Origin: a virus
Lineage: Duplodnaviria; Heunggongvirae; Uroviricota; Caudoviricetes
Strand: one strand, 5' to 3'
DNA: 25,360 bases
IMG/VR virus record: IMGVR_UViG_2529292905_000020
The translations under genes were made by a program, and so were the position numbers. Shown in pieces: positions 10,909-25,176 of this stretch; positions within the stretch are counted from its first letter, which is position 1; each line of letters opens with the position of its first letter. A model generated the notes under the pieces. That model did no database searches, was not told the DNA's origin, and saw only the letters and a list, made by a program, of their open reading frames with translations.

Positions 10909-11667
10909 ATGAGGAACATAATGGCAGGTTTTTTAATATTCCTGTCTTCTGCTGCTTATGCTGATATCAATCTGTATGGTCCTGGTGGCCCGCATACAGC
11001 CTTGCTTGATGCAGCCAAACTTTATGCCGAAAAAACAGGTATTATAGTGAACGTTCATTACGGCCCACAGAACAAATGGAATGAAGATGCCAAAAAAAAT
11101 GCAGATATCTTGTTTGGCGCATCAGAACAATCTGCTCTGGCTATCATTCGGGACCATAAAGACAGCTTCAGTGAAAAAGATATTCAGCCTCTTTATCTGC
11201 GAAAAAGTATTTTACTGGTAAAGAAAGGTAATCCTAAAAATATCCGGAGTATTGACGACCTGACCAGACCTGGGATTGGCGTAATTGTTAATGATGGTGG
11301 TGGTACCAGTAATACATCAGGCACTGGCGTCTGGGAAGATATTGCCGGACGTAAAGGGAATATAGAAACTGTCGCCGCAATCCGAAAAAATATTATTTTA
11401 TATGCGCCCAATAGCGGAACTGCACGTAAGGCTCTTGAGAATCAGCCTGGAGCAGATGTCTGGATAACCTGGGCTGACTGGGCAGCCAGTAATCCAGAAA
11501 TTGGTGATGTCGTGGAAATAGCGCCAGACTACGTGATATGGCGTGATATGAACATTACAGTACGTCAGGATGCAAATGATGAAACCCGTCGATTTGCAGA
11601 ATGGCTACAAACCGATGAAGCGGCGCCTGCATTCAAAAAATATGGCTGGACCAGGAAAGGCACTTGA
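10909..11667 (+). CDS. Periplasmic substrate-binding protein, ModA/TupA-like type II fold, with Sec signal peptide
   Basis: 252-aa ORF, AAGGAG upstream. N-terminal signal peptide (MRNIMAGFLIFLSSAAYA then D). Colinear resemblance to E. coli ModA over the whole length (C-terminal FAEWLQTDEAAPAFKKYGW vs FYDYLKGPQAAEIFKRYGF). AT-rich codon usage. No adjacent ABC permease or ATPase gene. Confidence 0.8.
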   Translation: MRNIMAGFLIFLSSAAYADINLYGPGGPHTALLDAAKLYAEKTGIIVNVHYGPQNKWNEDAKKNADILFGASEQSALAIIRDHKDSFSEKDIQPLYLRKSILLVKKGNPKNIRSIDDLTRPGIGVIVNDGGGTSNTSGTGVWEDIAGRKGNIETVAAIRKNIILYAPNSGTARKALENQPGADVWITWADWAASNPEIGDVVEIAPDYVIWRDMNITVRQDANDETRRFAEWLQTDEAAPAFKKYGWTRKGT

Positions 11668-12002
11668 CATCCTCGTCCTTCAGGACGTGGATTCTTTTTC
11701 CGGATGCCGCGCCAGCGGCATGTAGGGGCAGCTCACAAAACGGAAAAAATTGTACGCTAAGCCTCGCCAGGTGAACTGAATTCATTCCGATATGGGAATT
11801 CCCATATCGGGCGAAAACGGTTTGCTGTAACGGCAGAGTTAAGTAGGATTGCTGCGGGTGCTTGAGGCTATCTGCCTCGGGCATGAACACCAACGGCAGA
11901 TAGATAAAAGCCCCACCCGACTATAAATCGAAGTGAGGCCCCTATATGCTCGTCACATATAGATTGCCTCTTACGGACCGAAAGGTCAAGGAGAAGCAGG
12001 CT

Positions 12003-12158
12003 ATGAAGCAGCAAAAGGCGATGTTAATCGCCCTGATCGTCATCTGTTTAACCGTCATAGTGACGGCACTGGTAACGAGGAAAGACCTCTGCGAGGTACG
12101 AATCCGAACCGGCCAGACGGAGGTCGCTGTCTTCACAGCTTACGAACCTGAGGAGTAA
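12003..12158 (+). CDS. hokD: Hok/Gef-family membrane toxin (51 aa)
   Basis: MKQQKAMLIALIVICLTVIVTALVTRKDLCEVRIRTGQTEVAVFTAYEPEE is a Hok-family sequence, matching my recollection of HokD/RelF. Structured leader and 3' fold-back complement present. Confidence 0.85.
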   Translation: MKQQKAMLIALIVICLTVIVTALVTRKDLCEVRIRTGQTEVAVFTAYEPEE

Positions 12159-12254: not shown

Positions 12255-12386
12255 TTTTCAACGCGTTTGAAGTTCCGGACGGCGCCGGAATAGAATCAAA
12301 AATACTTAAGTAGCGCGCAGGGAGAAGAGGGATGGACCCCGAACTGAACCGCCCCGGTTTTCCTGGAGAGTGTTTTATCTGTGAAC

Positions 12387-13274
12387 TCAGGCTGCCAGAT
12401 CATCGTTTCTGATGGAAGCATAATAAGCTTTTTCTGCTTCTGCCGGAGGGATATGACCCAGCCTTCCCAGCAATCGTCGATTGTTATACCAGTCCACCCA
12501 CGTGAGTGTGGCCAGTTCCACTTCTGCACGGTTTTTCCAGCTCTTACGGTGTATTACCTCCGCTTTGTAAAGACCATTGATGCTCTCCGCCATCGCGTTG
12601 TCATACGAGTCACCTGTACTCCCTGTTGATGCCAGCAGTTTTGCTTCTTTTAGTCGCTCCGTATAGGCCAGTGATACATACTGAGAACCTTTATCACTGT
12701 GATGGACTGTGCCGGACGGCCGACGGGCCCACAACGCCTGCTCCAGTGCATCCAGCACGAATGTCGTTTCCATAGACGATGAGACTCGCCACCCCACGAT
12801 GCATCCGGCAAACACATCAATGATGAACGCCACATAGACGAAGCCCTGCCATGTGCTGACGTAAGTAAAATCAGCCACCCACAGCTGGTCAGGACGTTCT
12901 GCCACGAACTGACGGTTTACGCGGTCGCCTGCGGAAACGGCTTTCCGGCTGACGGTAGTACGGACCTTTTTACCCCGGAGAACACCGGCAAGTCCCATAA
13001 CCGCCATGAGGCGCGCCACTGTACATCTGGCCACCCTGATACCTTCGCGTAACAACTGGCGCCAGACTTTACGCACACCGTACACCTGATGATTTTCATC
13101 GTATACGCGCTGTATCTCTCTCTTCAGCCAGTCATCGCGCTGCGCACGGGCACTGCGTTTATCAGGATGATGTCGCTGTTGCTGACAGTGGTAATACGTT
13201 GACGGGGCAATATGCAGTTCACTGCATACCGGTCCGACCCCGTACTGCTCACGCAGCTTATCCAGCAGTGGCAT
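12387..13274 (-). CDS. IS629 transposase OrfB (DDE catalytic domain)
   Basis: 295-aa ORF with the IS3-family OrfB C-terminus (...LGHIPPAEAEKAYYASIRNDDLAA). Confidence 0.9.
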   Translation of the reverse strand: MPLLDKLREQYGVGPVCSELHIAPSTYYHCQQQRHHPDKRSARAQRDDWLKREIQRVYDENHQVYGVRKVWRQLLREGIRVARCTVARLMAVMGLAGVLRGKKVRTTVSRKAVSAGDRVNRQFVAERPDQLWVADFTYVSTWQGFVYVAFIIDVFAGCIVGWRVSSSMETTFVLDALEQALWARRPSGTVHHSDKGSQYVSLAYTERLKEAKLLASTGSTGDSYDNAMAESINGLYKAEVIHRKSWKNRAEVELATLTWVDWYNNRRLLGRLGHIPPAEAEKAYYASIRNDDLAA

Positions 13275-13600
13275 TATTTTTTCCAGAGGCGGTCGAACTC
13301 CGCCTTCGCAAAATAAGCGGAAGCCTGGCGAAGGATATCGTTACTGCGGCGCAGTTCACGATTTTCACGTTCCAGCTCTTTCAGACGCTGACGTTCAGCG
13401 GTGGTGAATCCACCATCACCACTCCCGGTATCCCGCTCATGCTGACGAACCCACACACGCAGAGTCTCTGGCGTACAGCCAATCTTTGGGGCAATGGAAC
13501 AAATTGCCGCCCATTGTGAGTCATATTCGCCCTGACTTTCCAGAACCATACGAACTGCCCGTTGACGGACCTCGGGGGAAAAACGTGTATTTTTAGTCAT
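13274..13600 (-). CDS. IS629 transposase OrfA (HTH)
   Basis: 108-aa [22 protein letters not shown]... matching remembered IS629 OrfA. Its stop overlaps the OrfB ATG (TAATG) beside an A6 run. Confidence 0.9.
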
Positions 13601-13692
13601 CCTGTTTACCTCTTTCTCAGGGAGTTTAGTCTCCAGGATTCCCGGGGCGGTTCAAACAGGGGGAGTGCTATTTATCTGGAAGGATTCTGTTG

Positions 13693-15355: not shown

Positions 15356-15721
15356 ATGACTGAACGGATAGAATTTGTTTTGCCTTACCCGCCGACGGTG
15401 AATACCTACTGGCGACGTCATGGCAATACGTATTTCATCTCGGAAGCCGGAAAGCGTTATCGCCGTGATGTGGCGCTAATTGTTCGCCAGCAGCGGCTGA
15501 AATTAAACCTGTCCGGAAGGCTGGTGATAAAGATTATTGCAGAGCCACCGGATAAGCGCCGTCGTGACCTGGACAATATCCTGAAAGCACCACTGGATGT
15601 GCTGACGCATGCCGGACTTCTCATAGACGACGAGCAGTTTGATGAAATCAATATTGTGCGCGGTCAGCTCGTTCCTGGTGGGCGGCTGGGGATAAAAATC
15701 ACAGAACTGGAGTGCGCATGA
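15356..15721 (+). CDS. rusA: RusA Holliday-junction resolvase
   Basis: 121-aa ORF with RusA hallmarks (YPPTVNTYWRRHGN..., RRRDLDNILKAPLDVLTHAGLLIDDEQ). Confidence 0.9.
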   Translation: MTERIEFVLPYPPTVNTYWRRHGNTYFISEAGKRYRRDVALIVRQQRLKLNLSGRLVIKIIAEPPDKRRRDLDNILKAPLDVLTHAGLLIDDEQFDEINIVRGQLVPGGRLGIKITELECA

Positions 15722-15876
15722 ATAACCACTATTTACAGTTTGTGCGTGAGCAGCTCATTATCGCCACCGCTGATTTGAGTGGGGCAACAAAAGGTCAGCT
15801 TGAAGCCTGGCAGGAGAATGCCATGTTCGATACAGGGCGTTACAGGCGAAAAAAATCCGGTACCGCGATGAAGTGA
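15718..15876 (+). CDS. Small hypothetical protein (52 aa)
   Basis: Below the ORF-track size cutoff. ATG overlaps the rusA stop (ATGA); its stop overlaps the GTG of the next gene. Position matches the small gene between rusA and Q in DLP12-type prophages. Confidence 0.3.
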   Translation: MNNHYLQFVREQLIIATADLSGATKGQLEAWQENAMFDTGRYRRKKSGTAMK

Positions 15877-16406
15877 CTGGAAAAATGATAACGCGGGATA
15901 ATCCACCAATCCCGGGAAAGCAATCGCTGGCGAAGGTGACGTCAATTCCTCTGGTCAGTCCGGTTGAGTTTTCGACATCATCGTGGCGGCGGGCTGTTCT
16001 GTCTCTTGAAGAACATCATAAAGCCTGGTTGTTGTGGTGTTACAGCGGGAGTATTTGTTGGGAATATCAGATCGCGATAACACAGTGGGCGTGGAATGAA
16101 TTTAATACTCAATCCGGTACCAGAAAAATTGCTGGGAAAACGCAGGAACGCCTGAAAAAATTAATCTGGCTGGCGGCGCAGGCAGTAAAAGCAGAACTTT
16201 TTGGTGGGGAAGGTTATGAATATCAGGAGCTGGCATTACTGGCGGGAGTGACAACTAAAAACTGGTCCAAAACATTTACTCGTCACTGGGTTGCAATGAA
16301 ACACATTTTTCACCGACTGGATAGTGAGGCTTTATTATTTGTAATGAGAACACGTTCAAAACAAAAGGCGGCATTTTCAAAGCAAAGTGTTGCAAAAGTA
16401 GATTGA
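15873..16406 (+). CDS. Putative late-gene antiterminator (Q-like)
   Basis: 177-aa ORF between rusA and the late promoter/tRNA cluster. Assignment is mainly positional; the family is not confidently recognised. Confidence 0.5.
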   Translation: MTGKMITRDNPPIPGKQSLAKVTSIPLVSPVEFSTSSWRRAVLSLEEHHKAWLLWCYSGSICWEYQIAITQWAWNEFNTQSGTRKIAGKTQERLKKLIWLAAQAVKAELFGGEGYEYQELALLAGVTTKNWSKTFTRHWVAMKHIFHRLDSEALLFVMRTRSKQKAAFSKQSVAKVD

Positions 16407-16473
16407 AAGGCATATATTTCATGCAAATCTGATATTTTGCCGATTTTGTACGTGATGGCAAAAGCAAACAAAA

Positions 16474-16497
16474 CCCGCCCACAAGCGGGTTTTGTTG
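16474..16497 (+). terminator. Intrinsic terminator downstream of the Q-like gene
   Basis: CCCGC-CCACAA-GCGGG stem-loop followed by TTTTGTTGTG. Confidence 0.55.
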
Positions 16498-16563
16498 TGC
16501 CACTTATCTCGGATAGACATGGTGAATGCGCTGGTGGAGGAGATAAGGGTGATTTTTGTATGC

Positions 16564-16592
16564 TTGCAACATTGATTTCGTAACGTTATTAT
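16564..16592 (+). promoter_or_regulatory. Sigma70-type promoter (candidate late promoter pR') upstream of the tRNA cluster
   Basis: TTGCAA, 17-nt spacer, TATTAT; the -10 ends about 9 nt before the first tRNA. Confidence 0.5.
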
Positions 16593-16601
16593 CCTGCGCC
16601 C

Positions 16602-16677
16602 GGCCCTTTAGCTCAGTGGTGAGAGCGAGCGACTCATAATCGCCAGGTCGCTGGTTCAAATCCAGCAAGGGCCACCA
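16602..16677 (+). tRNA. ileZ: tRNA-Ile2 (anticodon CAU, lysidine type)
   Basis: 76-nt cloverleaf. Acceptor GGCCCTT/AAGGGCC, anticodon loop CUCAUAA, T-loop TTCAAAT, encoded CCA. Closely resembles E. coli ileX. Confidence 0.9.
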
Positions 16678-16680
16678 ACC

Positions 16681-16754
16681 GCCACCAGCCATCAGGAAAG
16701 AGCGTCAACCCTTTAAGTTGAGTGTGCGAGGTTCGAGTCCCCGGTGGTGGTCCA
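16681..16754 (+). tRNA. Atypical tRNA-like sequence (degenerate argN-like?)
   Basis: Acceptor and T-arm can be drawn (T-loop TTCGAGT). Anticodon stem TCAAC/GTTGA with loop CCTTTAA (C at position 33, anticodon UUU by position). No canonical D-stem. Identity uncertain. Confidence 0.35.
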
Positions 16755-16767
16755 TTATCGGTATTCT

Positions 16768-16841
16768 GCGTTGTTAGCTCAGCAGGACAGAGCAATTGCC
16801 TTCTAAGCAATCGGTCACTGGTTCGACTCCAGTACAACGCG
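16768..16841 (+). tRNA. argO: tRNA-Arg (anticodon UCU)
   Basis: 74-nt cloverleaf. Acceptor GCGTTGT/ACAACGC, D-stem GCTC/GAGC, anticodon stem ATTGC/GCAAT with loop CTTCTAA, T-arm ACTGG-TTCGACT-CCAGT. 3' CCA not encoded. The argO name is positional (third tRNA of the Stx-phage-type trio). Confidence 0.85.
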
Positions 16842-17013
16842 CTACACTTATTTTCCCGGCTCGCTTTTGCGGGCCTTTTTTGTATCTGCGCCACGCCCGG
16901 CGCATACCAACCACAGAGCCTTTCGGGGGGGAGCTTACGGAGTGGTCAGTGTGACTTTCTCTGTGGGCAGATCGCTCCCGGGCGTTGGCTCACCCACCCA
17001 AAGGAACGTCACG

Positions 17014-17446
17014 ATGTTTGGTATTTTTGGTAAAAAAAGCCCGCAGAGCGGCAACGGAAATTAAAAAGTTTGAAAAACGCGATCTGGCACAGGTGGTGAT
17101 TAACGCCGCATACCTGGTGGCCTATGCAGATGGTGAATGTGAGGCTTCCTAGAAAGCGAAGATCGAACAGGTACTGCGTAATCAGCCTGCGCTGTCCGCG
17201 TTTACGTCAGAAATTAATGCGATTAGCGCAACCATTATCGGTCAGCTGGATACGAACTTTAAAACTGGTCGTCGTGCGGCGTTACGTGAGATCGAGGATG
17301 TGAAACACGATACGCGTGAAGCGGAAGATGTGCTGGATGTGGCGGTGGCCATTGCGGAGGCAGACGGCGAAATTGAGCCGGAAGAGCGCAAGGTGCTGGA
17401 AGAGATTGCCGGTGTTCTGGGTCTTCGTCTGGAGAATTACCTGTGA
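17014..17446 (+). pseudogene. TerB-like domain gene, disrupted (frameshift plus in-frame amber)
   Basis: ATG 17014 with AAAGGAA upstream encodes MFGIFGKKSPQSGNGN then stop. The +1 frame continues IKKFEKRDLAQVVINAAYLVAYADGECEAS, TAG at 17150-17152, then KAKIEQVL...AIAEADGEIEPEERKVLEEIAGVLGL ending at 17446. The ADG-containing repeats suggest a TerB-like fold. Confidence 0.5.
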
Positions 17447-17610
17447 CGGTAAAACTGCGCCTGACTGTGGCTGCACTCCTGCTGTTTCTGGTGGTGATGG
17501 TGGATTTCACCAGCAGAATCATGTCGGTGCTGGCGGATGGGGGGCTGGTCTGCGGCATTATGGTATTGCTGTGGCCGGTGATAAAAAGAAACAGCCTGCA
17601 TAATGCTTGA
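17443..17610 (+). CDS. Small hydrophobic protein (55 aa)
   Basis: GTG start overlapping the TerB-like stop (GTGA). MTVKLRLTVAALLLFLVVMVDFTSRIMSVLADGGLVCGIMVLLWPVIKRNSLHNA has two hydrophobic segments. Below the ORF-track cutoff. Confidence 0.3.
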   Translation: MTVKLRLTVAALLLFLVVMVDFTSRIMSVLADGGLVCGIMVLLWPVIKRNSLHNA

Positions 17611-17811
17611 TTTTTTTGTTTGCTGTTTATTAAAAACACTTCTGCATGGTGAATCCCCCTGTGCGGTGGGGCAATCAGCAAGAAGGAATATGGGGTAATC
17701 GCGGATTCAGGTGCTGATACTGAATTCACCGGGAGGCACCCGGCACCATGCTTTGCCACAAAAGTGTTATTTCTGTTTTTCTCAAACTATCATCGTTATC
17801 CCTTTATTTTC

Positions 17812-17838
17812 GGCTGCGCATGGCGCGGCCTTTTTTTT
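17812..17838 (+). terminator. Intrinsic terminator upstream of the esterase gene
   Basis: GGCTGCGC-ATG-GCGCGGCC stem (one G-U pair) followed by T8. Confidence 0.55.
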
Positions 17839-17924
17839 ACGACCAGCCACTGGCAGATGGTCATCCTGTGATTTGATTCCGCTTCCGGCTTTTTAACTCT
17901 GTTCCTCTACACGGGAGAAATTCG

Positions 17925-19775
17925 ATGTCGATTAAACATTACGATGTTATCAGGGCGGCGTCGCCGTCAGACCTTGCGGAAAAGCTGACACACAAACTGA
18001 AAGAGGGCTGGCAGCCATACGGCGGACCGGTTGCCATTACGCCGTACACACTGATGCAGGCGGTGGCTATTGAAGGAGAGCCACAGGTCGGCCCTTCATC
18101 TGAGCCGGATTGGTACTACGTCATCGTACTGGCCGGGCAGTCCAATGCAATGGCTTACGGTGAAGGGCTTCCGCTGCCGGATTCATACGATGCTCCGGAT
18201 CCGCGCATTAAACAGCTGGCGCGCCGCAGTACAGTGACGCCGGGTGGGGCTGCCTGCAGATATAACGATATTATTCCGGCTGACCACTGTCTGCATGATG
18301 TGCAGGATATGAGTACGCTGAATCATCCGAGGGCTGACCTGAGCAAAGGGCAGTACGGCTGTGTCGGTCAGGGTTTACATATTGCCAAAAAACTGCTCCC
18401 GTATATCCCGAATAACGCGGGGATCCTGCTGGTACCATGCTGTCGTGGTGGTTCGGCATTTACCCAGGGCGCGGAGGGGACATTCAGCGAGTCCACGGGG
18501 GCCAGTCAGGATTCGGCACGCTGGGGGGTGGGCAAGCCGTTATATCAGGATCTGATTTCCCGCACAAAAGCGGCATTGCAGAAAAATCCCAAAAACGTTC
18601 TGCTGGCCGTCTGCTGGATGCAGGGTGAGTTTGACATGAGCGCCGCCACCCACGCACAGCAACCTGCGCTGTTTACAGCCATGCTGACACAGTTTCGTGC
18701 TGACCTCTCCGTGTTTAACGCGCAGTGCCATGGTGGCAGTGCTGCAGATGTGCCGTGGGTTTGTGGTGACACGACGTATTACTGGAAAAATACATACGCT
18801 ACCCAGTACGACACCGTGTACGGCGGGTATAAAAACAGGGAGAGTGAGGGCGTTTATTTTGTGCCCTTCATGACAGATGGTAACGGCGTCAATACCGCCA
18901 CTAACGCGCCGGCAGAAGATCCGGATATTCCGGCATCAGGATATTACGGTGCGGCATCGAGAACGAATGGAAACCAGGTATCATCAAACCGCCCGACACA
19001 TTTCAGTTCATGGGCGCGCAGGAGCATTATTCCGGATCGTCTGGCAACCGCTATTCTGAACGCAGCCGGGCGCACCTCAGCCTTCATCAGTGGTAAGGCA
19101 CCGGAAATCAAACCCTCGCCCGGCGGCAACACGCCATCGGGTCCGTCTGCAGATACGTCCGTTCGCACAATCTCCCTGCTGCCGGCAGCCGGAGAGGCTG
19201 CTGCGCAGGGCTGGAGCATTAAGGATGGCGGAATTCAGTTGTCAGATGGTGTATTTAAGATCACCAAGCAGAGCAATAAAACCTGGTCCCTGACGCATCC
19301 GGTGGATGACGCAATTACCCTGCTGACACAGGGCGGCAGACTGACCTGTAAGTTCCGCCTGTCAGGCGCACTGACCAACAATCAGTTCGGGCTGGGGATT
19401 TATCTGTATACGGATGCTCCCGTTCCTGATGGTGTGGCGATGACGGGTACCGGTAATCCGTTCCTGATGTCGTACTTCACTCAGACCACTGACGGCAGAG
19501 TGAATCTGATGCATCACAGGAAAGCCGGAAACACGAAGCTGGGGGAGTTCGGCGATTACGGTAACGACTGGCAGACGCTGGAGCTGGTGTTCACCGCCGG
19601 CAGTGCCACGGTTACTCCGAAACTGAATGGAGTGGCTGGCCCGGCATTCCAGGTTATAAAAGACAGTCTGACACTGGGACTGAATGCGCTGACGCTGACG
19701 GATGTTACAAAAAATGCAGCGTATGGCGTTGAGATAGAAAGTCTGATGCTGGAGATAAATGCACCGGCAGCATAA
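17925..19775 (+). CDS. nanS: NanS-p-like sialate O-acetylesterase (N-terminal DUF1737-like segment plus SGNH/SASA esterase domain)
   Basis: 616-aa ORF with GGGAGAAA upstream. VIVLAGQSNAMAYGEG matches the GQSN block of sialate O-acetylesterases. Sits where Stx prophages carry nanS-p next to stx. Confidence 0.8.
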   Translation: MSIKHYDVIRAASPSDLAEKLTHKLKEGWQPYGGPVAITPYTLMQAVAIEGEPQVGPSSEPDWYYVIVLAGQSNAMAYGEGLPLPDSYDAPDPRIKQLARRSTVTPGGAACRYNDIIPADHCLHDVQDMSTLNHPRADLSKGQYGCVGQGLHIAKKLLPYIPNNAGILLVPCCRGGSAFTQGAEGTFSESTGASQDSARWGVGKPLYQDLISRTKAALQKNPKNVLLAVCWMQGEFDMSAATHAQQPALFTAMLTQFRADLSVFNAQCHGGSAADVPWVCGDTTYYWKNTYATQYDTVYGGYKNRESEGVYFVPFMTDGNGVNTATNAPAEDPDIPASGYYGAASRTNGNQVSSNRPTHFSSWARRSIIPDRLATAILNAAGRTSAFISGKAPEIKPSPGGNTPSGPSADTSVRTISLLPAAGEAAAQGWSIKDGGIQLSDGVFKITKQSNKTWSLTHPVDDAITLLTQGGRLTCKFRLSGALTNNQFGLGIYLYTDAPVPDGVAMTGTGNPFLMSYFTQTTDGRVNLMHHRKAGNTKLGEFGDYGNDWQTLELVFTAGSATVTPKLNGVAGPAFQVIKDSLTLGLNALTLTDVTKNAAYGVEIESLMLEINAPAA

Positions 19776-19776
19776 T

Positions 19777-20072
19777 AAAAAAAGCCAGCGACTGACCTGA
19801 AAAAGAAGACGCTGGCTAAAAGGCCTTATATGTTTGTAGAGACTTATTTTTCACAGACAGCAATGATGCCTGTCAATATATTATCAATATGCGGATTGTT
19901 TCAGTTACAGATGCCTTATTAAGGAAAAAAACAGCCAGCACTGACTTTCGGTGGAGAGGTGCTGGCTCAAAAGGATAGATGTACTTCACATGTTGCTTCT
20001 ATATGGCAGTACATTTTCTGACAGACAGTGACGGATGTTGTCAAGATATTGTGTCATTTATAACCTGAATCA
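19777..20072. repeat. Two diverged copies of a ~130-bp element, each starting with an A-run and a GCCAGC...GCTGGC hairpin
   Basis: Copy 1 19777-19905 (hairpin 19784-19816); copy 2 19925-20072 (hairpin 19934-19966). Shared blocks AAAAGG, TTTTC(A/T)CAGACAG, TGTCAA(T/G)ATATT. Read on the minus strand each hairpin is followed by a U-run. Confidence 0.5.
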
Positions 20073-20141
20073 GGGGAGGCCGGAATGTTATCTGGCATTT
20101 TTAGCAGAGCCTGAATGCCATAATCACGGCTCCCGGCGTTG

Positions 20142-20178
20142 GCCGTCAGTGGGTGACACTGGCGGCTTTTTTGTTTTT
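20142..20178 (+). terminator. Strong intrinsic terminator 45 nt upstream of the holin gene
   Basis: GCCGTCAGTG-GGTGA-CACTGGCGGC (10-bp stem, one G-U) followed by TTTTTTGTTTTT. Confidence 0.6.
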
Positions 20179-20222
20179 CTTTACTTTCATTTTCTGTCGG
20201 CGGTGACGGAGACATACATCAG

Positions 20223-20429
20223 ATGGAAAAAATCACAACAGGTGTGTCATACACCACGTCAGCGGTGGGGACGGGATACTGGTTACTGCAGCTGCTGGAC
20301 AAAGTCTCTCCGTCCCAGTGGGTGGCAATAGGTGTGCTGGGAAGTCTGCTGTTTGGCCTGCTGACGTATCTGACAAATCTTTATTTCAAGATTAAAGAAG
20401 ATAAGCGTAAGGCTGCGAGAGGTGAATAA
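20223..20429 (+). CDS. Holin (phage 21 S-type pinholin)
   Basis: 68-aa [71 protein letters not shown] closely resembles remembered S21. Confidence 0.9.
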
Positions 20430-20926
20430 TGTCGCCGTCATTACGCAAGGCTGTTGCAGCTGCTATTGGTGGTGGGGCTGTTGCCATAGCGTCTGTGCTC
20501 ATCACTGGTCCAGGTGGTAACGATGGTCTGGAAGGTGTCAGCTACATACCATACAAAGATATCGTTGGCGTATGGACTGTATGTCACGGACACACCGGAA
20601 AAGACATCATGCCCGGTAAAACGTATACCGAAGCAGAATGCAAAGCCCTCCTGAATAAAGACCTTGCCACGGTCGCCAGACAAATTAACCCGTACATCAA
20701 CGTCGATATACCGGAAACAACGCGCGGCGCTCTTTACTCGTTCGTTTACAACGTGGGCGCTGGCAATTTCAGAACATCGACGCTTCTTCGCAAAATAAAC
20801 CAGGGCGATATCAAAGGCGCATGTGATCAGCTACGGCGCTGGACATACGCTGGCGGTAAGCAATGGAAAGGGCTGATGACTCGCCGCGAGATTGAGCGTG
20901 AAGTCTGTTTGTGGGGGCAACAATGA
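20429..20926 (+). CDS. SAR endolysin (lysozyme, phage 21 R-type)
   Basis: 165-aa ORF. N-terminal Gly/Ala-rich signal-anchor segment ([20 protein letters not shown]) then a T4-lysozyme-like domain. TAATG overlap with the holin gene. Confidence 0.9.
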
Positions 20927-21390
20927 GCAGGGTAACCGTTATTATCTCCGCTCTGGTTATCTGCATTATCGCCTGCCTGTCATGGGCTGTTAATCATTAC
21001 CGCGATAACGCCATTACCTACAAAGCGCAACGCGATAAAAAAGCCAGTGAGCTGAAGCTGGCGAACGTGACAATTACTGATATGCAGGTACGCCAGCGTG
21101 ATGTCGCTGCACTTGATGCCAGATACTCGAGGGAATTAGCCGATGCGAGAGCTGAAAATGAAACTCTGCGTGCTGATGTTGCCGCTGGTCGTAAGCGCCT
21201 GCGCATCAACGCCAACTGTCCAGGCTCCTTGCGTAAAGCCCCCATCACCTCCGGCGTGGGTAATGCAACCGGTCCCCGACTGGCAGAAGCCGCTGAACGG
21301 GATTATTTCATCCTCAGAGAACGGCTGATGGCAATGCAGAAGCAACTGGAAGGAGCACAGGAATATATCCGTACCCAGTGTATACCGTGA
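20923..21390 (+). CDS. Rz (inner-membrane spanin)
   Basis: Start at ATG 20923 overlapping the endolysin stop (ATGA). N-terminal TM segment, coiled-coil-like body. Contains an embedded +1-frame lipoprotein ORF. Confidence 0.85.
21158..21328 (+). CDS. Rz1 (outer-membrane lipoprotein spanin), embedded in Rz
   Basis: [15 protein letters not shown]: lipobox VSAC followed by a Pro-rich mature region ([22 protein letters not shown]), entirely inside Rz in another frame. Confidence 0.7.
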
Positions 21391-21854: not shown

Positions 21855-22169
21855 ATGCTACATGATCACGTGGCAGAATGTCTAGAGAAAAAAGGACTGT
21901 ACCGGAGAGCAGCTGAACGATGGGCAAAAGTGATGGTACAGCTAAGTGATGACCAGAAAAGAAAAGTGGCGGCACAGAAACGAGCAGAGTGTTTGCGTAA
22001 GGCGCGCCGGACTCCGGTTTCACCGGTGAACCTGACCGAAATAAAACAAGCGGTCAACAGACTACATTCTGAGTTGGGAATGGGATTTGAAGAGCGGCGG
22101 GTATTCCGACGATATAAAGGGACAGGAGAACAGAATACGTCCGGAAACGCGCGGTCAAAAAAATGCTAA
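21855..22169 (+). CDS. PerC-family transcriptional regulator (Pch-like)
   Basis: 104-aa ORF with GGAGG upstream. N-terminal VAECLEKKGLYRRAAERWAKVM resembles the conserved PerC/Pch N-terminus. AT-rich, preceded by a T-rich tract. Confidence 0.55.
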   Translation: MLHDHVAECLEKKGLYRRAAERWAKVMVQLSDDQKRKVAAQKRAECLRKARRTPVSPVNLTEIKQAVNRLHSELGMGFEERRVFRRYKGTGEQNTSGNARSKKC

Positions 22170-23725: not shown

Positions 23726-25176
23726 TACCTGTATGGAGCACGGCATGTCCGGACTGGGCAGAGCGCCTGAAAAAGGGACTGTCGATTATTCCGGCTCCGA
23801 TTTATCCGGACCAGGCTGCACATGCACTGGCGATTTTTAAACAACTGCGGATTGTGGATGCACCGGGTAGCCCGACGTTCGGGGAGTCCTGCGCACAGTG
23901 GGTGTTTGACCTGGTGGCGGCCCTGTTTGGCTCCTATGATGCGCAGACCGGTGTACGCCATATCAAGGAAGTTTTTATCCTTATCCCCAAGAAAAACAGT
24001 AAGTCCACGCTGGCCGCGGGGATCATGATGACGGCGCTGTTACTGAACTGGCGGCAGGCGGCGGGCTACACCATTCTGGCCCCGACCGTGGAGGTGGCGG
24101 CTAACGCCTTCAACCCTGCCAGGGATATGGTACGACGGGACGATGATCTGGATGACCTCTGTCAGGTGCAGACACATATCCGGACCATCACCCATCGGGT
24201 GACGGACACCACCCTGAAGGTGGTGGCAGCCGATCCGAATACGGTGTCCGGTATCAAGTCCGTGGGGACACTGATTGATGAACTGTGGCTGTTTGGCAAG
24301 CAGTACAAAGCGGAAGACATGCTACGTGAAGCCATCGGCGGGCTTGCCTCCCGTCCGGAAGGATTTGTGGTGTACACAACCACCCAGTCGAATGAACCGC
24401 CTGCCGGGGTGTTCAGACAGAAACTGCAGTACGCCCGGGATGTCCGTGACGGCAAAATTCATGATCCGCACTTTCTGCCGGTGATTTTTGAGCATCCTCC
24501 TGAAATGGTGGAAAGCGGGGCTCACCTGCTGATGGAAAACCTCGCCATGGTTAACCCGAATCTCGGTTATTCGGTGGATGAGGCTTTTCTGTACCGGGAG
24601 TACCGTAAAGCCCGGGAGGCTGGTGAGGAAGCATTTCGTGGCTTCATGTCAAAACACGCCAATGTGGAAATCGGTCTTGCCCTGCGTTCTGACCGCTGGG
24701 CGGGCGCGGATTTCTGGGAGCAGCAGGGCAGGCGCGTCAGCCTGGACGATATCCTGCAGCGCGCTGATGTGGTGACGGTGGGGATTGACGGCGGGGGCCT
24801 GGATGATCTGCTGGGAATGTACGTGATTGGCCGTGACAGGGAAACCCGCGAATGGCTGGGCTGGGGCCATGCCTGGGTGCATGAAACCGCGGTGGTCAGA
24901 CGGAAGAGTGAGGCATCCCGGTTTCAGGATTTTGTGGCCTGTGGAGACATGACGATTGTCCGTCGGGTCGGGGATGACACGGCGGAAGTGGCGGAGTATG
25001 TGCGTCGTATTCATGAGGCTGAGTTACTGGATCATATCGGTATTGACCCGTCAGGTGTGGGGCAGATTCTGGATTCACTGGCGGAAGCCGGGATCCCCGA
25101 TGAGAGTGTGGTGGGGATAAGCCAGGGCTGGAAGCTGGGCGGGGCCATCAAAAACCACCGAGCGCAAACTGGCTGA
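23722..25176 (+). CDS. Terminase large subunit, reading frame interrupted near its 3' end
   Basis: 484-aa ORF with P-loop-like LIPKKNSKST. Ends ...GGAIKNHRAQTG-stop; homology clearly continues in the +1 frame from about 25157. Apparent 1-bp insertion in the A5 run at 25150-25154. Confidence 0.85.
   Translation: MIPVWSTACPDWAERLKKGLSIIPAPIYPDQAAHALAIFKQLRIVDAPGSPTFGESCAQWVFDLVAALFGSYDAQTGVRHIKEVFILIPKKNSKSTLAAGIMMTALLLNWRQAAGYTILAPTVEVAANAFNPARDMVRRDDDLDDLCQVQTHIRTITHRVTDTTLKVVAADPNTVSGIKSVGTLIDELWLFGKQYKAEDMLREAIGGLASRPEGFVVYTTTQSNEPPAGVFRQKLQYARDVRDGKIHDPHFLPVIFEHPPEMVESGAHLLMENLAMVNPNLGYSVDEAFLYREYRKAREAGEEAFRGFMSKHANVEIGLALRSDRWAGADFWEQQGRRVSLDDILQRADVVTVGIDGGGLDDLLGMYVIGRDRETREWLGWGHAWVHETAVVRRKSEASRFQDFVACGDMTIVRRVGDDTAEVAEYVRRIHEAELLDHIGIDPSGVGQILDSLAEAGIPDESVVGISQGWKLGGAIKNHRAQTG

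Follow-up and report, generated by a model that had tools for sequence, protein, structure and literature searches.

Introduction

In Escherichia coli, the chromosomal sialic-acid operon nanCMS encodes NanS (YjhS), a Neu5,9Ac2 enzyme with a single domain and a length of about 326 amino acids that the cell exports to its periplasm. Lambdoid prophages carry larger relatives of this esterase, the NanS-p proteins, the first of which to be characterized biochemically was 933Wp42 (z1466) from the Stx2a phage 933W. Every NanS-p allele from EDL933 and O104:H4 that has been tested is an active Neu5,9Ac2 esterase and supports growth on both Neu5,9Ac2 and mucin, and the presence of several nanS-p copies translates into a gene-dose growth benefit (PMC8065619). 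A cryo-EM and proteomics preprint further reports that the NanS-p homologue of phage phi24B, gp84 (vb_24B_21), decorates the capsid, to which it is attached via its DUF1737 domain (10.64898/2026.04.10.717836), and the order PasD, esterase, PasA/PasC, holin and lysozyme, where PasD and PasA are small RNAs (sRNAs), is common (10.64898/2026.05.13.724894).

Here we analyze such a locus in a 25,360-nucleotide stretch of prophage DNA, referred to below as the window. An earlier note had read the open reading frame (ORF) at 17925..19775 (+ strand) as a prophage-borne, NanS-p-like sialate O-acetylesterase, a known accessory function of EHEC prophages, placed under late-promoter/Q control between two intrinsic terminators and expressed in dependence on antitermination and induction. 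We find it very probable that the ORF encodes a prophage-borne, three-domain and cytoplasmically made NanS-p sialate O-acetylesterase in a lambdoid late region, with a catalytic mechanism extrapolated from its family and a mode of transcription inferred from the surrounding elements.

An intact copy of a widespread prophage gene

The nanS-p coding sequence is by far the longest ORF of the region and runs uninterrupted from ATG to TAA (616 amino acids), preceded by a Shine-Dalgarno motif, GGGAG (17913..17917), which we read 7 nt before the start codon and at the same place as the ribosome-binding site annotated in phage 434. The deduced protein exceeds the Pfam gathering scores for three domains, DUF1737 (residues 4-49), SASA (PF03629, residues 66-262, 48.6 bits, cut-off 24.8) and DUF6645 (residues 467-577), and matches phrog_143 over its full length with 1158 bits; an NCBIfam search of the protein returned no match, and in RefSeq the protein of identical sequence, WP_000023143.1, carries the name 'SASA family carbohydrate esterase'. 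Together with the PDB matches described below, these data confirm the ORF as a genuine gene, and its assignment as NanS-p, a known accessory function of phages, is secured by the domain architecture, the catalytic motifs, a position after Q and ahead of the lysis cassette, and near-identical genes annotated as nanS-p/yjhS in Stx1 phages. A 98-residue ORF at 20035-20331 and a small - strand 'hypothetical protein' pseudogene, which RefSeq places over the nanS-p start, were judged to be annotation or ORF noise.

The gene is 100% identical at the nucleotide level in O55:H7-type genomes, and nanS-p is found in 1614 of 5426 complete E. coli genomes, at a median of 2 and up to 14 places per genome. 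The copy in the window is an ordinary one of an already known gene. As for the proposed EHEC setting, it holds for the accessory function itself but not for this particular element, which lacks stx, has O55:H7-type strains as its nearest hosts and is not a classical Stx-converting EHEC phage. The prophage adjoins ompW, includes integrase, excisionase and terminase genes within the window, and carries a structural module resembling that of Stx1 phages.

The closest protein relatives are gp42 of the Stx1 phage YYZ-2008, E2348C_0688 of E2348/69 prophage PP2 and gp71 of phage 434 (96.1%, 99.2% and 99.8% identity, respectively), all of which are likewise 616 residues long, share the three domains and are encoded ahead of a P21-type holin. 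They differ from the window protein by a handful of substitutions, which in the case of YYZ-2008 fall mostly within residues 47-59, and the spacer 3' of nanS-p, including the PasA gene, is 99.3-100% identical in all three. YYZ-2008 features stx1AB where the window prophage carries tRNA genes, a terB-family pseudogene and a DUF3927 gene.

The esterase core and its catalytic motifs

Residues 60-379 (18102..19061) form a NanS-like SGNH/SASA esterase core that aligns with the E. coli NanS structure (PDB 3PT5) with an E-value of 1.3e-122 and 57.5% identity over residues 61-378. The earlier note had made its proposal contingent on the SGNH catalytic residues, and these are present at the level of the individual codons. 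Block I (GQSN) contributes Ser73 (codon 18141-18143), block II (RGG) spans residues 174-176, block III (QGE) residues 233-235, and block V (RPTH) contributes His359 (codon 18999-19001); in 3PT5 and 933Wp42, each of them has its counterpart at the aligned position. Across 21 homologues of 58-93% identity, G71-Q72-S73-N74, R174-G175, W231-M232-Q233-G234-E235, R356 and H359 are invariant. The RPTH version of block V departs from the RSSH or RASH found in most NanS-p proteins and has been described among Stx2a phages for phage 86 only (Pascal et al., PMC10462455).

By analogy with the family, catalysis would proceed via Ser73 of the GQSN block and His359 of the RPTH block, with Gly175 (RGG) and Gln233 (QGE) probably representing the two other conserved SGNH blocks. 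The enzyme would remove the 9-O-acetyl group from Neu5,9Ac2 and from O-acetylated mucin glycans, rendering the sialic acid usable by the NanA pathway. An AlphaFold2 model of the core is poor, with pLDDT values below 50 over residues 29-202 and 317-367 (21 close homologues, a shallow alignment), and we therefore rely for the Ser-His pair on the sequence matches to 3PT5 and, for the C-terminal domain, to 6YP6 rather than on an independent three-dimensional check.

Comparison with the characterized proteins places the window copy as a divergent sibling of 933Wp42 and phi24B gp84, with which it shares the DUF1737-SASA-lectin architecture, the SGNH blocks and a gene location between Q/stx and S. 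Identity to 933Wp42 reaches 70.8% in the esterase core and 53% overall, block V reads RPTH instead of RASH, and the window protein is 29 residues shorter owing to shorter interdomain linkers. The catalytic domain is also homologous to that of chromosomal NanS, with identical block motifs; in contrast to NanS, however, the window protein has additional N- and C-terminal domains, is prophage-borne among phage genes rather than next to nanC and nanM, and lacks a signal peptide. Indeed, no N-terminal hydrophobic segment is found in the window protein (maximum Kyte-Doolittle value of 1.27 over 15 residues), so that access of the enzyme to its substrate would require phage-mediated lysis or presence on virions.

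The N-terminal DUF1737 and a possible place on the virion

The N-terminal DUF1737 (residues 4-49, 17934..18071) is a bona fide member of its family (PF08410, E = 2.2e-15), of a subtype that the alignment distinguishes as 'PVAITPYTLMQA'. In the phi24B homologue this module attaches the protein to capsid hexons, which raises the question of whether NanS-p is primarily a virion component, with DUF1737 anchoring a hexamer on the capsid hexons and with the esterase and lectin-like domains serving the phage, through mucus adherence or penetration or through O-acetyl removal from host surface glycans, rather than the nutrition of the lysogen. We hold this as a tentative minority view. It is consistent with the phi24B precedent, with the presence of a true DUF1737 in the window protein, with the lack of a signal peptide and the location of the gene in the late transcription unit for virion and lysis functions, and with a possible role in phage adsorption raised in a review (PMC8065619).

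The details of the module argue the other way. The subtype is only 57% identical, with a loop shorter by 3 residues; Tyr42, the anchor-loop 'tooth', and S55-P59 of 933Wp42 align to gaps, and in this alignment both Tyr42 and a SISSP-type processing site after Gly54 are absent from the window protein, which instead has Y41 and GPSSEP. The particles themselves are also expected to differ, as the prophage family encodes a protease-major capsid protein fusion of the HK97 type together with long-tail genes, pointing, from gene content, to a siphovirus-like head as opposed to the T=9 podovirus capsid of phi24B. Furthermore, a protein differing by one residue occurs in phage 434 (Alegriavirus), whereas the related Stx1 phage is YYZ-2008 (Pankowvirus), which hints against tight co-adaptation to a single capsid. 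Virion and enzymatic roles of NanS-p are not mutually exclusive.

The late transcription unit

The gene order around nanS-p is RusA, Q, tRNAs, (terB pseudogene), DUF3927, nanS-p, holin, lysozyme and Rz, which places nanS-p in the late unit. On this point the earlier reading stands: a Q gene, a candidate late promoter and terminator, tRNA genes, nanS-p and a lysis cassette of P21-type class II holin (20223-20429, PF04971), lysozyme (20429-20926, PF00959) and Rz (20911-21390, PF03245) follow one another on the + strand. Control by Q in cis is less certain. The antiterminator gene (15718..16406, +), which belongs to the Q82 family (PF06323, E = 9.7e-91 for an intact relative), is frameshifted relative to a related prophage copy, L001, by one missing A in a run of eight (A7 rather than A8, at 15849); translation from the ATG at 15718 would yield a 52-residue N-terminal fragment that ends at the stop codon 15874-15876. 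Q is intact (WP_001059384.1) in the three relatives inspected, and none of the best 40 matches listed in a search of complete E. coli genomes carries the same frameshift. Dependence on Q in cis is thus not to be assumed, and antitermination from within this prophage is doubtful.

The candidate pR' promoter (TTGCAA-17-TATATT, 16390..16418, +) overlaps the end of Q and was proposed from a promoter scan on the basis of consensus and conservation; its hexamers are kept in phage 434 and in E2348/69 PP2 despite Q proteins of only 73% identity, the value found against the 'Q82-like' Q of phage 434. The first terminator after pR' is a candidate tR' hairpin at 16467..16496 (+, -23.7 kcal/mol, z = -4.6), whose homologue is annotated as a terminator in phage 434, and post-Q promoter and terminator elements are conserved in three Q82-family phages. 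There follows a tRNA cassette (16564..16875, +) delineated by ARAGORN, Rfam and motif scans and 87% identical to the pT-ileZ-arg region of 933W. It consists of a candidate promoter pT (16564-16592), tRNA-Ile2/Met(CAU) (16602-16677, called as Ile by PGAP), tRNA-Arg(UCU) (16768-16842) and a closing terminator (16858-16875). Downstream, the segment 17015..17610 (+) holds the terB-family pseudogene, with an in-frame TAG at 17150-17152 and the RefSeq label 'internal stop' in all relatives, and then a gene for a DUF3927/TciB-like small membrane protein (17443-17610, PF13064).

Two + strand terminators bracket nanS-p, as had been claimed. One lies upstream at 17812-17830 (8 bp of which 7 are GC, followed by U8; -15.4 kcal/mol, z = -4.0) and the other 56 nt before the holin start at 20141..20167 (11 bp with a U-rich tail; -21.6 kcal/mol, z = -3.4), both at positions homologous to terminators annotated in the phage 434 record. 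The unit contains more than these two, however, with at least three hairpin terminators between the candidate pR' and nanS-p and a fourth before the holin.

Two sRNA genes beside nanS-p

An sRNA gene of the STnc100/PasD family (17615..17838, +) has the upstream terminator at its 3' end. It matches Rfam RF02076 at 17615-17787 with 100.8 bits (gathering score 47), and 87 nt separate its end from the ATG of the esterase gene, the same distance as in E2348/69. It shares its 5' end and terminator with PasD2 of E2348/69, the shared hairpin at 17812-17830 taking the place of the STnc100 model's own terminator stem, and the two are identical at 133 of 206 positions (65%). Overall, the window sRNA resembles the Rfam STnc100 model more than it does PasD2 and lacks the PasD seed UGUGAG.

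On the other side, the gene for PasA (19774..20009, -) converges with nanS-p, giving a major 85-nt form (20009 to 19925) and a minor 236-nt form (20009 to 19774) that ends inside the nanS-p stop codon. Both forms of the PasA described by Pearl Mizrahi in 2021 are 100% identical in the window (85/85 and 236/236 positions of the Northern-validated E2348/69 PasA, Table S6 coordinates, PMC8550237), and the published Northern probe matches exactly at 19934-19958. Folding places both 3' ends at - strand intrinsic terminators, and terminators are annotated at the homologous sites of phage 434. PasA would accordingly be transcribed convergently into the 3' end of nanS-p and be fully complementary to nanS-p or late transcripts that extend toward the holin. 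The alternative of a + strand PasA ending at 20141-20167, drawn from the synteny in the Pas preprint, was ruled out by Table S6 (PMC8550237) and by alignment.

The window thereby reproduces the order PasD, esterase, PasA, holin and lysozyme published in the preprint by Zhu, Shabalina and Storz. Rfam returned no AgvB-, AsxR- or StxS-type match around nanS-p, and the only other signals, isrK and OrzO-P at 19-27 bits (E = 0.2-0.5), fell below the threshold on the pR'-tR' leader and are treated as chance.

How nanS-p may be expressed

A promoter scan found no sigma-70-like site between 17839 and 17924. In the model that we favor, nanS-p would lack a recognizable promoter of its own and depend on elements further upstream, namely Q, the candidate pR'/tR', the tRNA cassette and the STnc100/PasD-type sRNA gene, and its mRNA would come from polymerase that reads through several intrinsic terminators. 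This polymerase could be Q-modified after induction or could leak from the tRNA and sRNA promoters; given the frameshifted Q in cis, Q for the window copy would come from another prophage. Homologous genes respond to induction, with nanS-p mRNA rising by 1-2.4 log upon mitomycin C treatment (PMC10462455) and z1466 ranking among the genes most induced by norfloxacin (PMC8065619). The earlier claim of dependence on antitermination and induction is thus borne out for the response of homologous mRNAs and weakened by the detectable expression in uninduced cultures and by the broken Q.

Alternatively, nanS-p could be expressed for the most part without Q or induction, with basal mRNA originating from readthrough at 17812-17838 or from the tRNA promoter and with nanS-p acting as a lysogenic-conversion function. 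We regard this as possible, if on balance doubtful. In its favor are the detectable uninduced mRNA (PMC10462455), the abundance in uninduced EPEC of PasD-type sRNAs encoded immediately upstream and in the same orientation (pasD2 base mean about 11,000; PMC8550237) and several defective EDL933 prophages that still aid growth on Neu5,9Ac2 (PMC8065619). Against it stand the strength of the GC-rich terminator at 17812-17830, the 10- to 250-fold increase of mRNA on induction in homologues (PMC10462455) and the need of a cytoplasmic enzyme without signal peptide for lysis or export to meet its mucin-bound substrate.

The condition of the prophage bears on the same point. In addition to Q, terL carries a one-base frameshift at 25150 that, relative to all close relatives, is private to the window, and an IS629-like element is inserted in the early region (12345-13654). 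Both frameshifts, in Q and in terL, fall within homopolymer stretches, where a sequencing error may be the cause. Given these frameshifts and the insertion, the prophage could probably not be induced to lysis on its own, and for this copy that undermines release of the enzyme by lysis.

Taken further, nanS-p could be an intact and effectively silent passenger of a dead prophage unless other prophages rescue it, a scenario that we consider improbable. The private single-nucleotide indels, the IS629-like insertion and the terB pseudogene speak for decay, as does the related copy L001, which likewise has a frameshifted portal gene and IS elements in its tail region. The 616-codon ORF, on the other hand, is fully intact and 100% identical to its relatives, the two frameshifts may not be real, and the several lambdoid prophages per genome implied by the copy numbers of nanS-p could supply Q in trans.

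The C-terminal lectin-like domain

The C-terminal region (residues 421-613, 19185..19763) is a lectin-like beta-sandwich (DUF6645) that matches the crystallized C-terminal domain of phi24B NanS-p (6YP6, E = 1.1e-29) and PF20350 (E = 4.5e-18), and it is the sole confident part of the AlphaFold2 model, all-beta with a pLDDT of about 90. It represents a divergent variant of the crystallized domain, 33.5% identical to the corresponding part of 933Wp42, and in the alignment F488, Y493, F518 and L584 stand where the four aromatics proposed to bind are expected, so that the Y/Y/Y/F set of 933Wp42 and phi24B gp84 becomes F/Y/F/L with one position occupied by leucine. The jelly-roll fold probably binds carbohydrate. 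That the natural substrate would be a polysaccharide of the bacterial surface bearing O-acetyl groups (O-antigen or K1-type polysialic acid), making the enzyme a receptor-access tool of the phage, has been discussed (PMC8065619) and would suit an allele-variable C-terminus reminiscent of host-range modules, but is very unlikely given that recombinant NanS-p proteins de-O-acetylate Neu5,9Ac2 and bovine mucin glycans (PMC8065619), that the core is closely related to the Neu5,9Ac2 enzyme NanS and that nanS-p lies outside the tail-fiber module.

Implications

NanS-p esterases enable pathogenic E. coli to use the O-acetylated sialic acids of gut mucus, a picture that one more identical nanS-p copy leaves unchanged. 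What is useful here is a corrected local map, in which two Hfq-dependent prophage sRNAs flank nanS-p, PasA overlaps its stop codon and the antiterminator gene is broken. That the spacers beside nanS-p are sRNA genes is relevant to how its expression is read and to the design of deletions or qPCR amplicons. By analogy with phi24B, we can also envisage, as a speculation that we rate rather unlikely, that DUF1737 of the widespread 'PVAITPYTLMQA' subtype may anchor the esterase on the heads of both long-tailed HK97-type (Stx1-phage-like) and lambda-like (434) virions and that PasA could set the amount of esterase made. If such anchoring were true, NanS-p would serve lambdoid phages in general, displayed on their capsids to modify mucus, instead of acting as a nutrition factor of the lysogen.

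A phage-borne NanS-type esterase gene with conserved catalytic motifs

The nanS-p gene, coding for a sialate O-acetylesterase of the NanS-p type, runs without interruption on the plus strand from an ATG at 17925 to a TAA ending at 19775 (616 aa), exactly where the earlier note had placed it, with a GGGAG ribosome-binding site 7 nt 5′ of the start codon. Its product scores above the Pfam gathering thresholds for DUF1737 (residues 4–49), the sialic-acid-specific acetylesterase domain SASA (66–262) and DUF6645 (467–577), and matches phrog_143 end to end (1158 bits); no NCBIfam model matched it. [quoted passage not shown] An AlphaFold2 model derived from 21 sequences was confident for the C-terminal beta-sandwich only, and no signal-peptide-like hydrophobic segment was found at the N-terminus.

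Aligning the protein with 3PT5 and with 933Wp42, the NanS-p of Stx2a phage 933W, recovers all SGNH blocks (G71-Q72-S73-N74, R174-G175-G176, Q233-G234-E235 and R356-x-x-H359), and G71, Q72, S73, N74, R174, G175, W231, M232, Q233, G234, E235, R356 and H359 are invariant in 21 homologues of 58–93% identity. The loss of catalytic residues that would speak against an esterase is therefore not seen, and the prophage NanS-type identity proposed from sequence inspection is borne out by these residues together with the Pfam domains and the structural matches. Block V reads RPTH, a variant found among Stx2a phages in phage 86 alone (Pascal et al., PMC10462455). The esterase core is 57.5% identical to chromosomal NanS and 70.8% identical to 933Wp42, whereas the C-terminal domain has diverged from that of 933Wp42 (33.5% identity). 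The four aromatics proposed for carbohydrate binding in the phi24B homologue vb_24B_21, namely Y510, Y515, Y540 and F611 (PMC10462455), align here with F488, Y493, F518 and L584.

A possible capsid role for DUF1737

This same phi24B protein, gp84, has been described as capsid-decorating in a 2026 cryo-EM and proteomics preprint: in this T=9 podovirus, its DUF1737 binds the central capsid hexons as a hexamer, anchored by Tyr42, and the protein is then processed after residue ~54–57 and at a second site separating the esterase from the lectin domain (10.64898/2026.04.10.717836). As the window protein also carries a DUF1737, capsid binding is a possible rival or additional function; however, its domain is of another, apparently more widespread subtype (GGPVAITPYTLMQA), with a loop shorter by 3 aa and without the SISSP motif, and the head type of the prophage differs from that of phi24B.

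Distribution and prophage context

nanS-p itself is already known, and its family is well studied. The 1851-nt sequence recurs at 100% identity in E. coli 2013C-4465, FDAARGOS_946 and O55:H7 DEC5A, and 1614 of 5426 complete E. coli genomes contain matches, at a median of 2 and a maximum of 14 places per genome. Among phages, 434 has a copy of 99.8% identity, and many Stx1a-converting phages carry one of ~96% identity, annotated ‘yjhS: 9-O-acetyl-N-acetylneuraminic acid deacetylase’; RefSeq names the product ‘SASA family carbohydrate esterase’. A protein search returned 1603 relatives, nearly all from Escherichia, which have the three-domain architecture in common.

The host prophage is lambdoid, carries no stx, and adjoins ompW at its integration site in the closest complete genome. 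Integrase, excisionase, exonuclease, repressor/cro and replication genes and paa are followed by hokD/sok, DUF968, RusA and the antiterminator gene Q; two tRNAs, a terB pseudogene, a DUF3927 gene and nanS-p come next, ahead of a P21-type holin, lysozyme, Rz, a PerC homologue and terminase. Structural genes of the full prophage (a 645-aa protease-capsid fusion, portal and long-tail genes) are organized as in Stx1 phage YYZ-2008.

Several accessory elements were also observed. The paa gene (AcfC-family adhesin, 10909–11667) is identical to the annotated copy of the relative L001, and the hokD/sok toxin-antitoxin pair (11856–12158; sok RF01794, 103.9 bits) precedes an IS3-family, IS629-like insertion (12345–13654) that the closest complete genome lacks. 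This element has inverted repeats TGAACCGCCCCGG, orfA/orfB on the minus strand and an ALIL frameshifting pseudoknot (RF01497, 13203–13319, 120.9 bits). A 104-aa PerC-family (Pch-like) transcriptional activator is encoded at 21855–22169, 3′ of the lysis cassette.

Position of nanS-p in the late transcription unit

Q belongs to PF06323, and the ‘Q82-like’ protein of phage 434 is 73% identical to the window type. Immediately after Q lies a plus-strand promoter-like site (TTGCAA-17-TATATT, 16390–16418), followed by a strong hairpin (16467–16496, −23.7 kcal/mol); phage 434 and prophage PP2 of EPEC E2348/69 share both elements, and in 434 the hairpin is an annotated terminator. From sequence, we infer that these are the late promoter pR′ and its first terminator tR′. 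The predicted ~75-nt leader (16423–16500, plus strand), which gave sub-threshold Rfam matches only (isrK, 19.4 bits; OrzO-P, 27.4 bits), would correspond to lambda 6S RNA or to late transcripts of the StxS type that terminate early.

Beyond the candidate tR′, a block made up of a promoter-like site for tRNAs, the two tRNA genes and their terminator is 87% identical to the pT-ileZ-arg region of 933W. The tRNA at 16602–16677 is called Met by ARAGORN (anticodon CAT) and tRNA-Ile by RefSeq; given the latter and the identity to 933W ileZ-arg, it is probably a lysidine-dependent tRNA-Ile2. Next come the TerB-family gene (17015–17446), with an in-frame TAG at 17150–17152 and annotated as a pseudogene in all relatives examined, so that its inactivation is old and shared, and then the DUF3927 gene, a hairpin at 17812–17830, nanS-p, a strong plus-strand terminator at 20141–20167 and, 56 nt further, the holin. 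A promoter scan found no sigma-70-like site at 17839–17924, which places nanS-p as part of the late unit. Homologues respond to mitomycin C, which raises expression by 1–2.4 log over a detectable basal level (PMC10462455), and to norfloxacin (PMC8065619).

The late position claimed in the earlier note thus holds, but the gene is flanked by several terminators rather than just two, and Q is not intact in cis. One A is lost at 15849 (A7 instead of A8, 15842–15849), creating a premature stop at 15874–15876 and a product of 52 residues from ATG 15718, or 54 from the upstream GTG 15712. Q is intact (WP_001059384.1) in all three relatives whose annotation was inspected (L001, 2014C-3061 and MBT-5), and the 40 top matches listed in a complete-genome search all lack a Q stretch identical to the window's. 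The large terminase is likewise frameshifted relative to L001 (A5 vs A4, 25146–25150), ending at 25176 rather than continuing. Because both changes fall in homopolymers, they may reflect either real decay or sequencing error.

Small RNA genes on either side of nanS-p

Upstream, STnc100 (RF02076) matches at 17615–17787 on the plus strand (100.8 bits; gathering threshold 47), and 17644–17838 aligns with PasD2 of E2348/69, with the 5′ end and terminator in common; 87 nt separate the PasD-family terminator from the esterase start in both. Judged by these alignments, the terminator upstream of nanS-p is that of an STnc100/PasD-family sRNA gene, although the PasD seed UGUGAG is absent from 17615–17838.

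Downstream, the 447-nt spacer encodes PasA on the minus strand, convergent with nanS-p. In E2348/69 PasA is a validated Hfq-dependent sRNA (PMC8550237), extending on the minus strand from 743499 to 743415 (major form) or 743264 (minor form) (Table S6, PMC8550237). The major form is identical over 85/85 nt (window 20009→19925) and the minor over 236/236 (20009→19774), its 3′ end falling within the nanS-p stop codon; the published Northern probe matches exactly at 19934–19958. Published RIL-seq targets of PasA include the esterase-gene 3′ end, with the motif CUGAUGCUGGA (PMC8550237), present here at 19743–19753. The EPEC RIL-seq tables also list a plus-strand intergenic RNA, ‘pasA.E2348C_0689.IGR’, equivalent to window 20004–20022 (PMC8550237), which may be an unnamed RNA or the nanS-p mRNA 3′ end. 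The order PasD, esterase, PasA/PasC, holin, lysozyme has been described as common (Zhu/Shabalina/Storz preprint, 10.64898/2026.05.13.724894).

What is added for this well-studied family is the verification of the catalytic residues and a revised map of its regulation: nanS-p is flanked by sRNA genes, one of them convergent, there are several terminators instead of two, and Q is broken in this copy. If the frameshifts are true, this copy of nanS-p would depend on the Q of another prophage or on terminator leakage.
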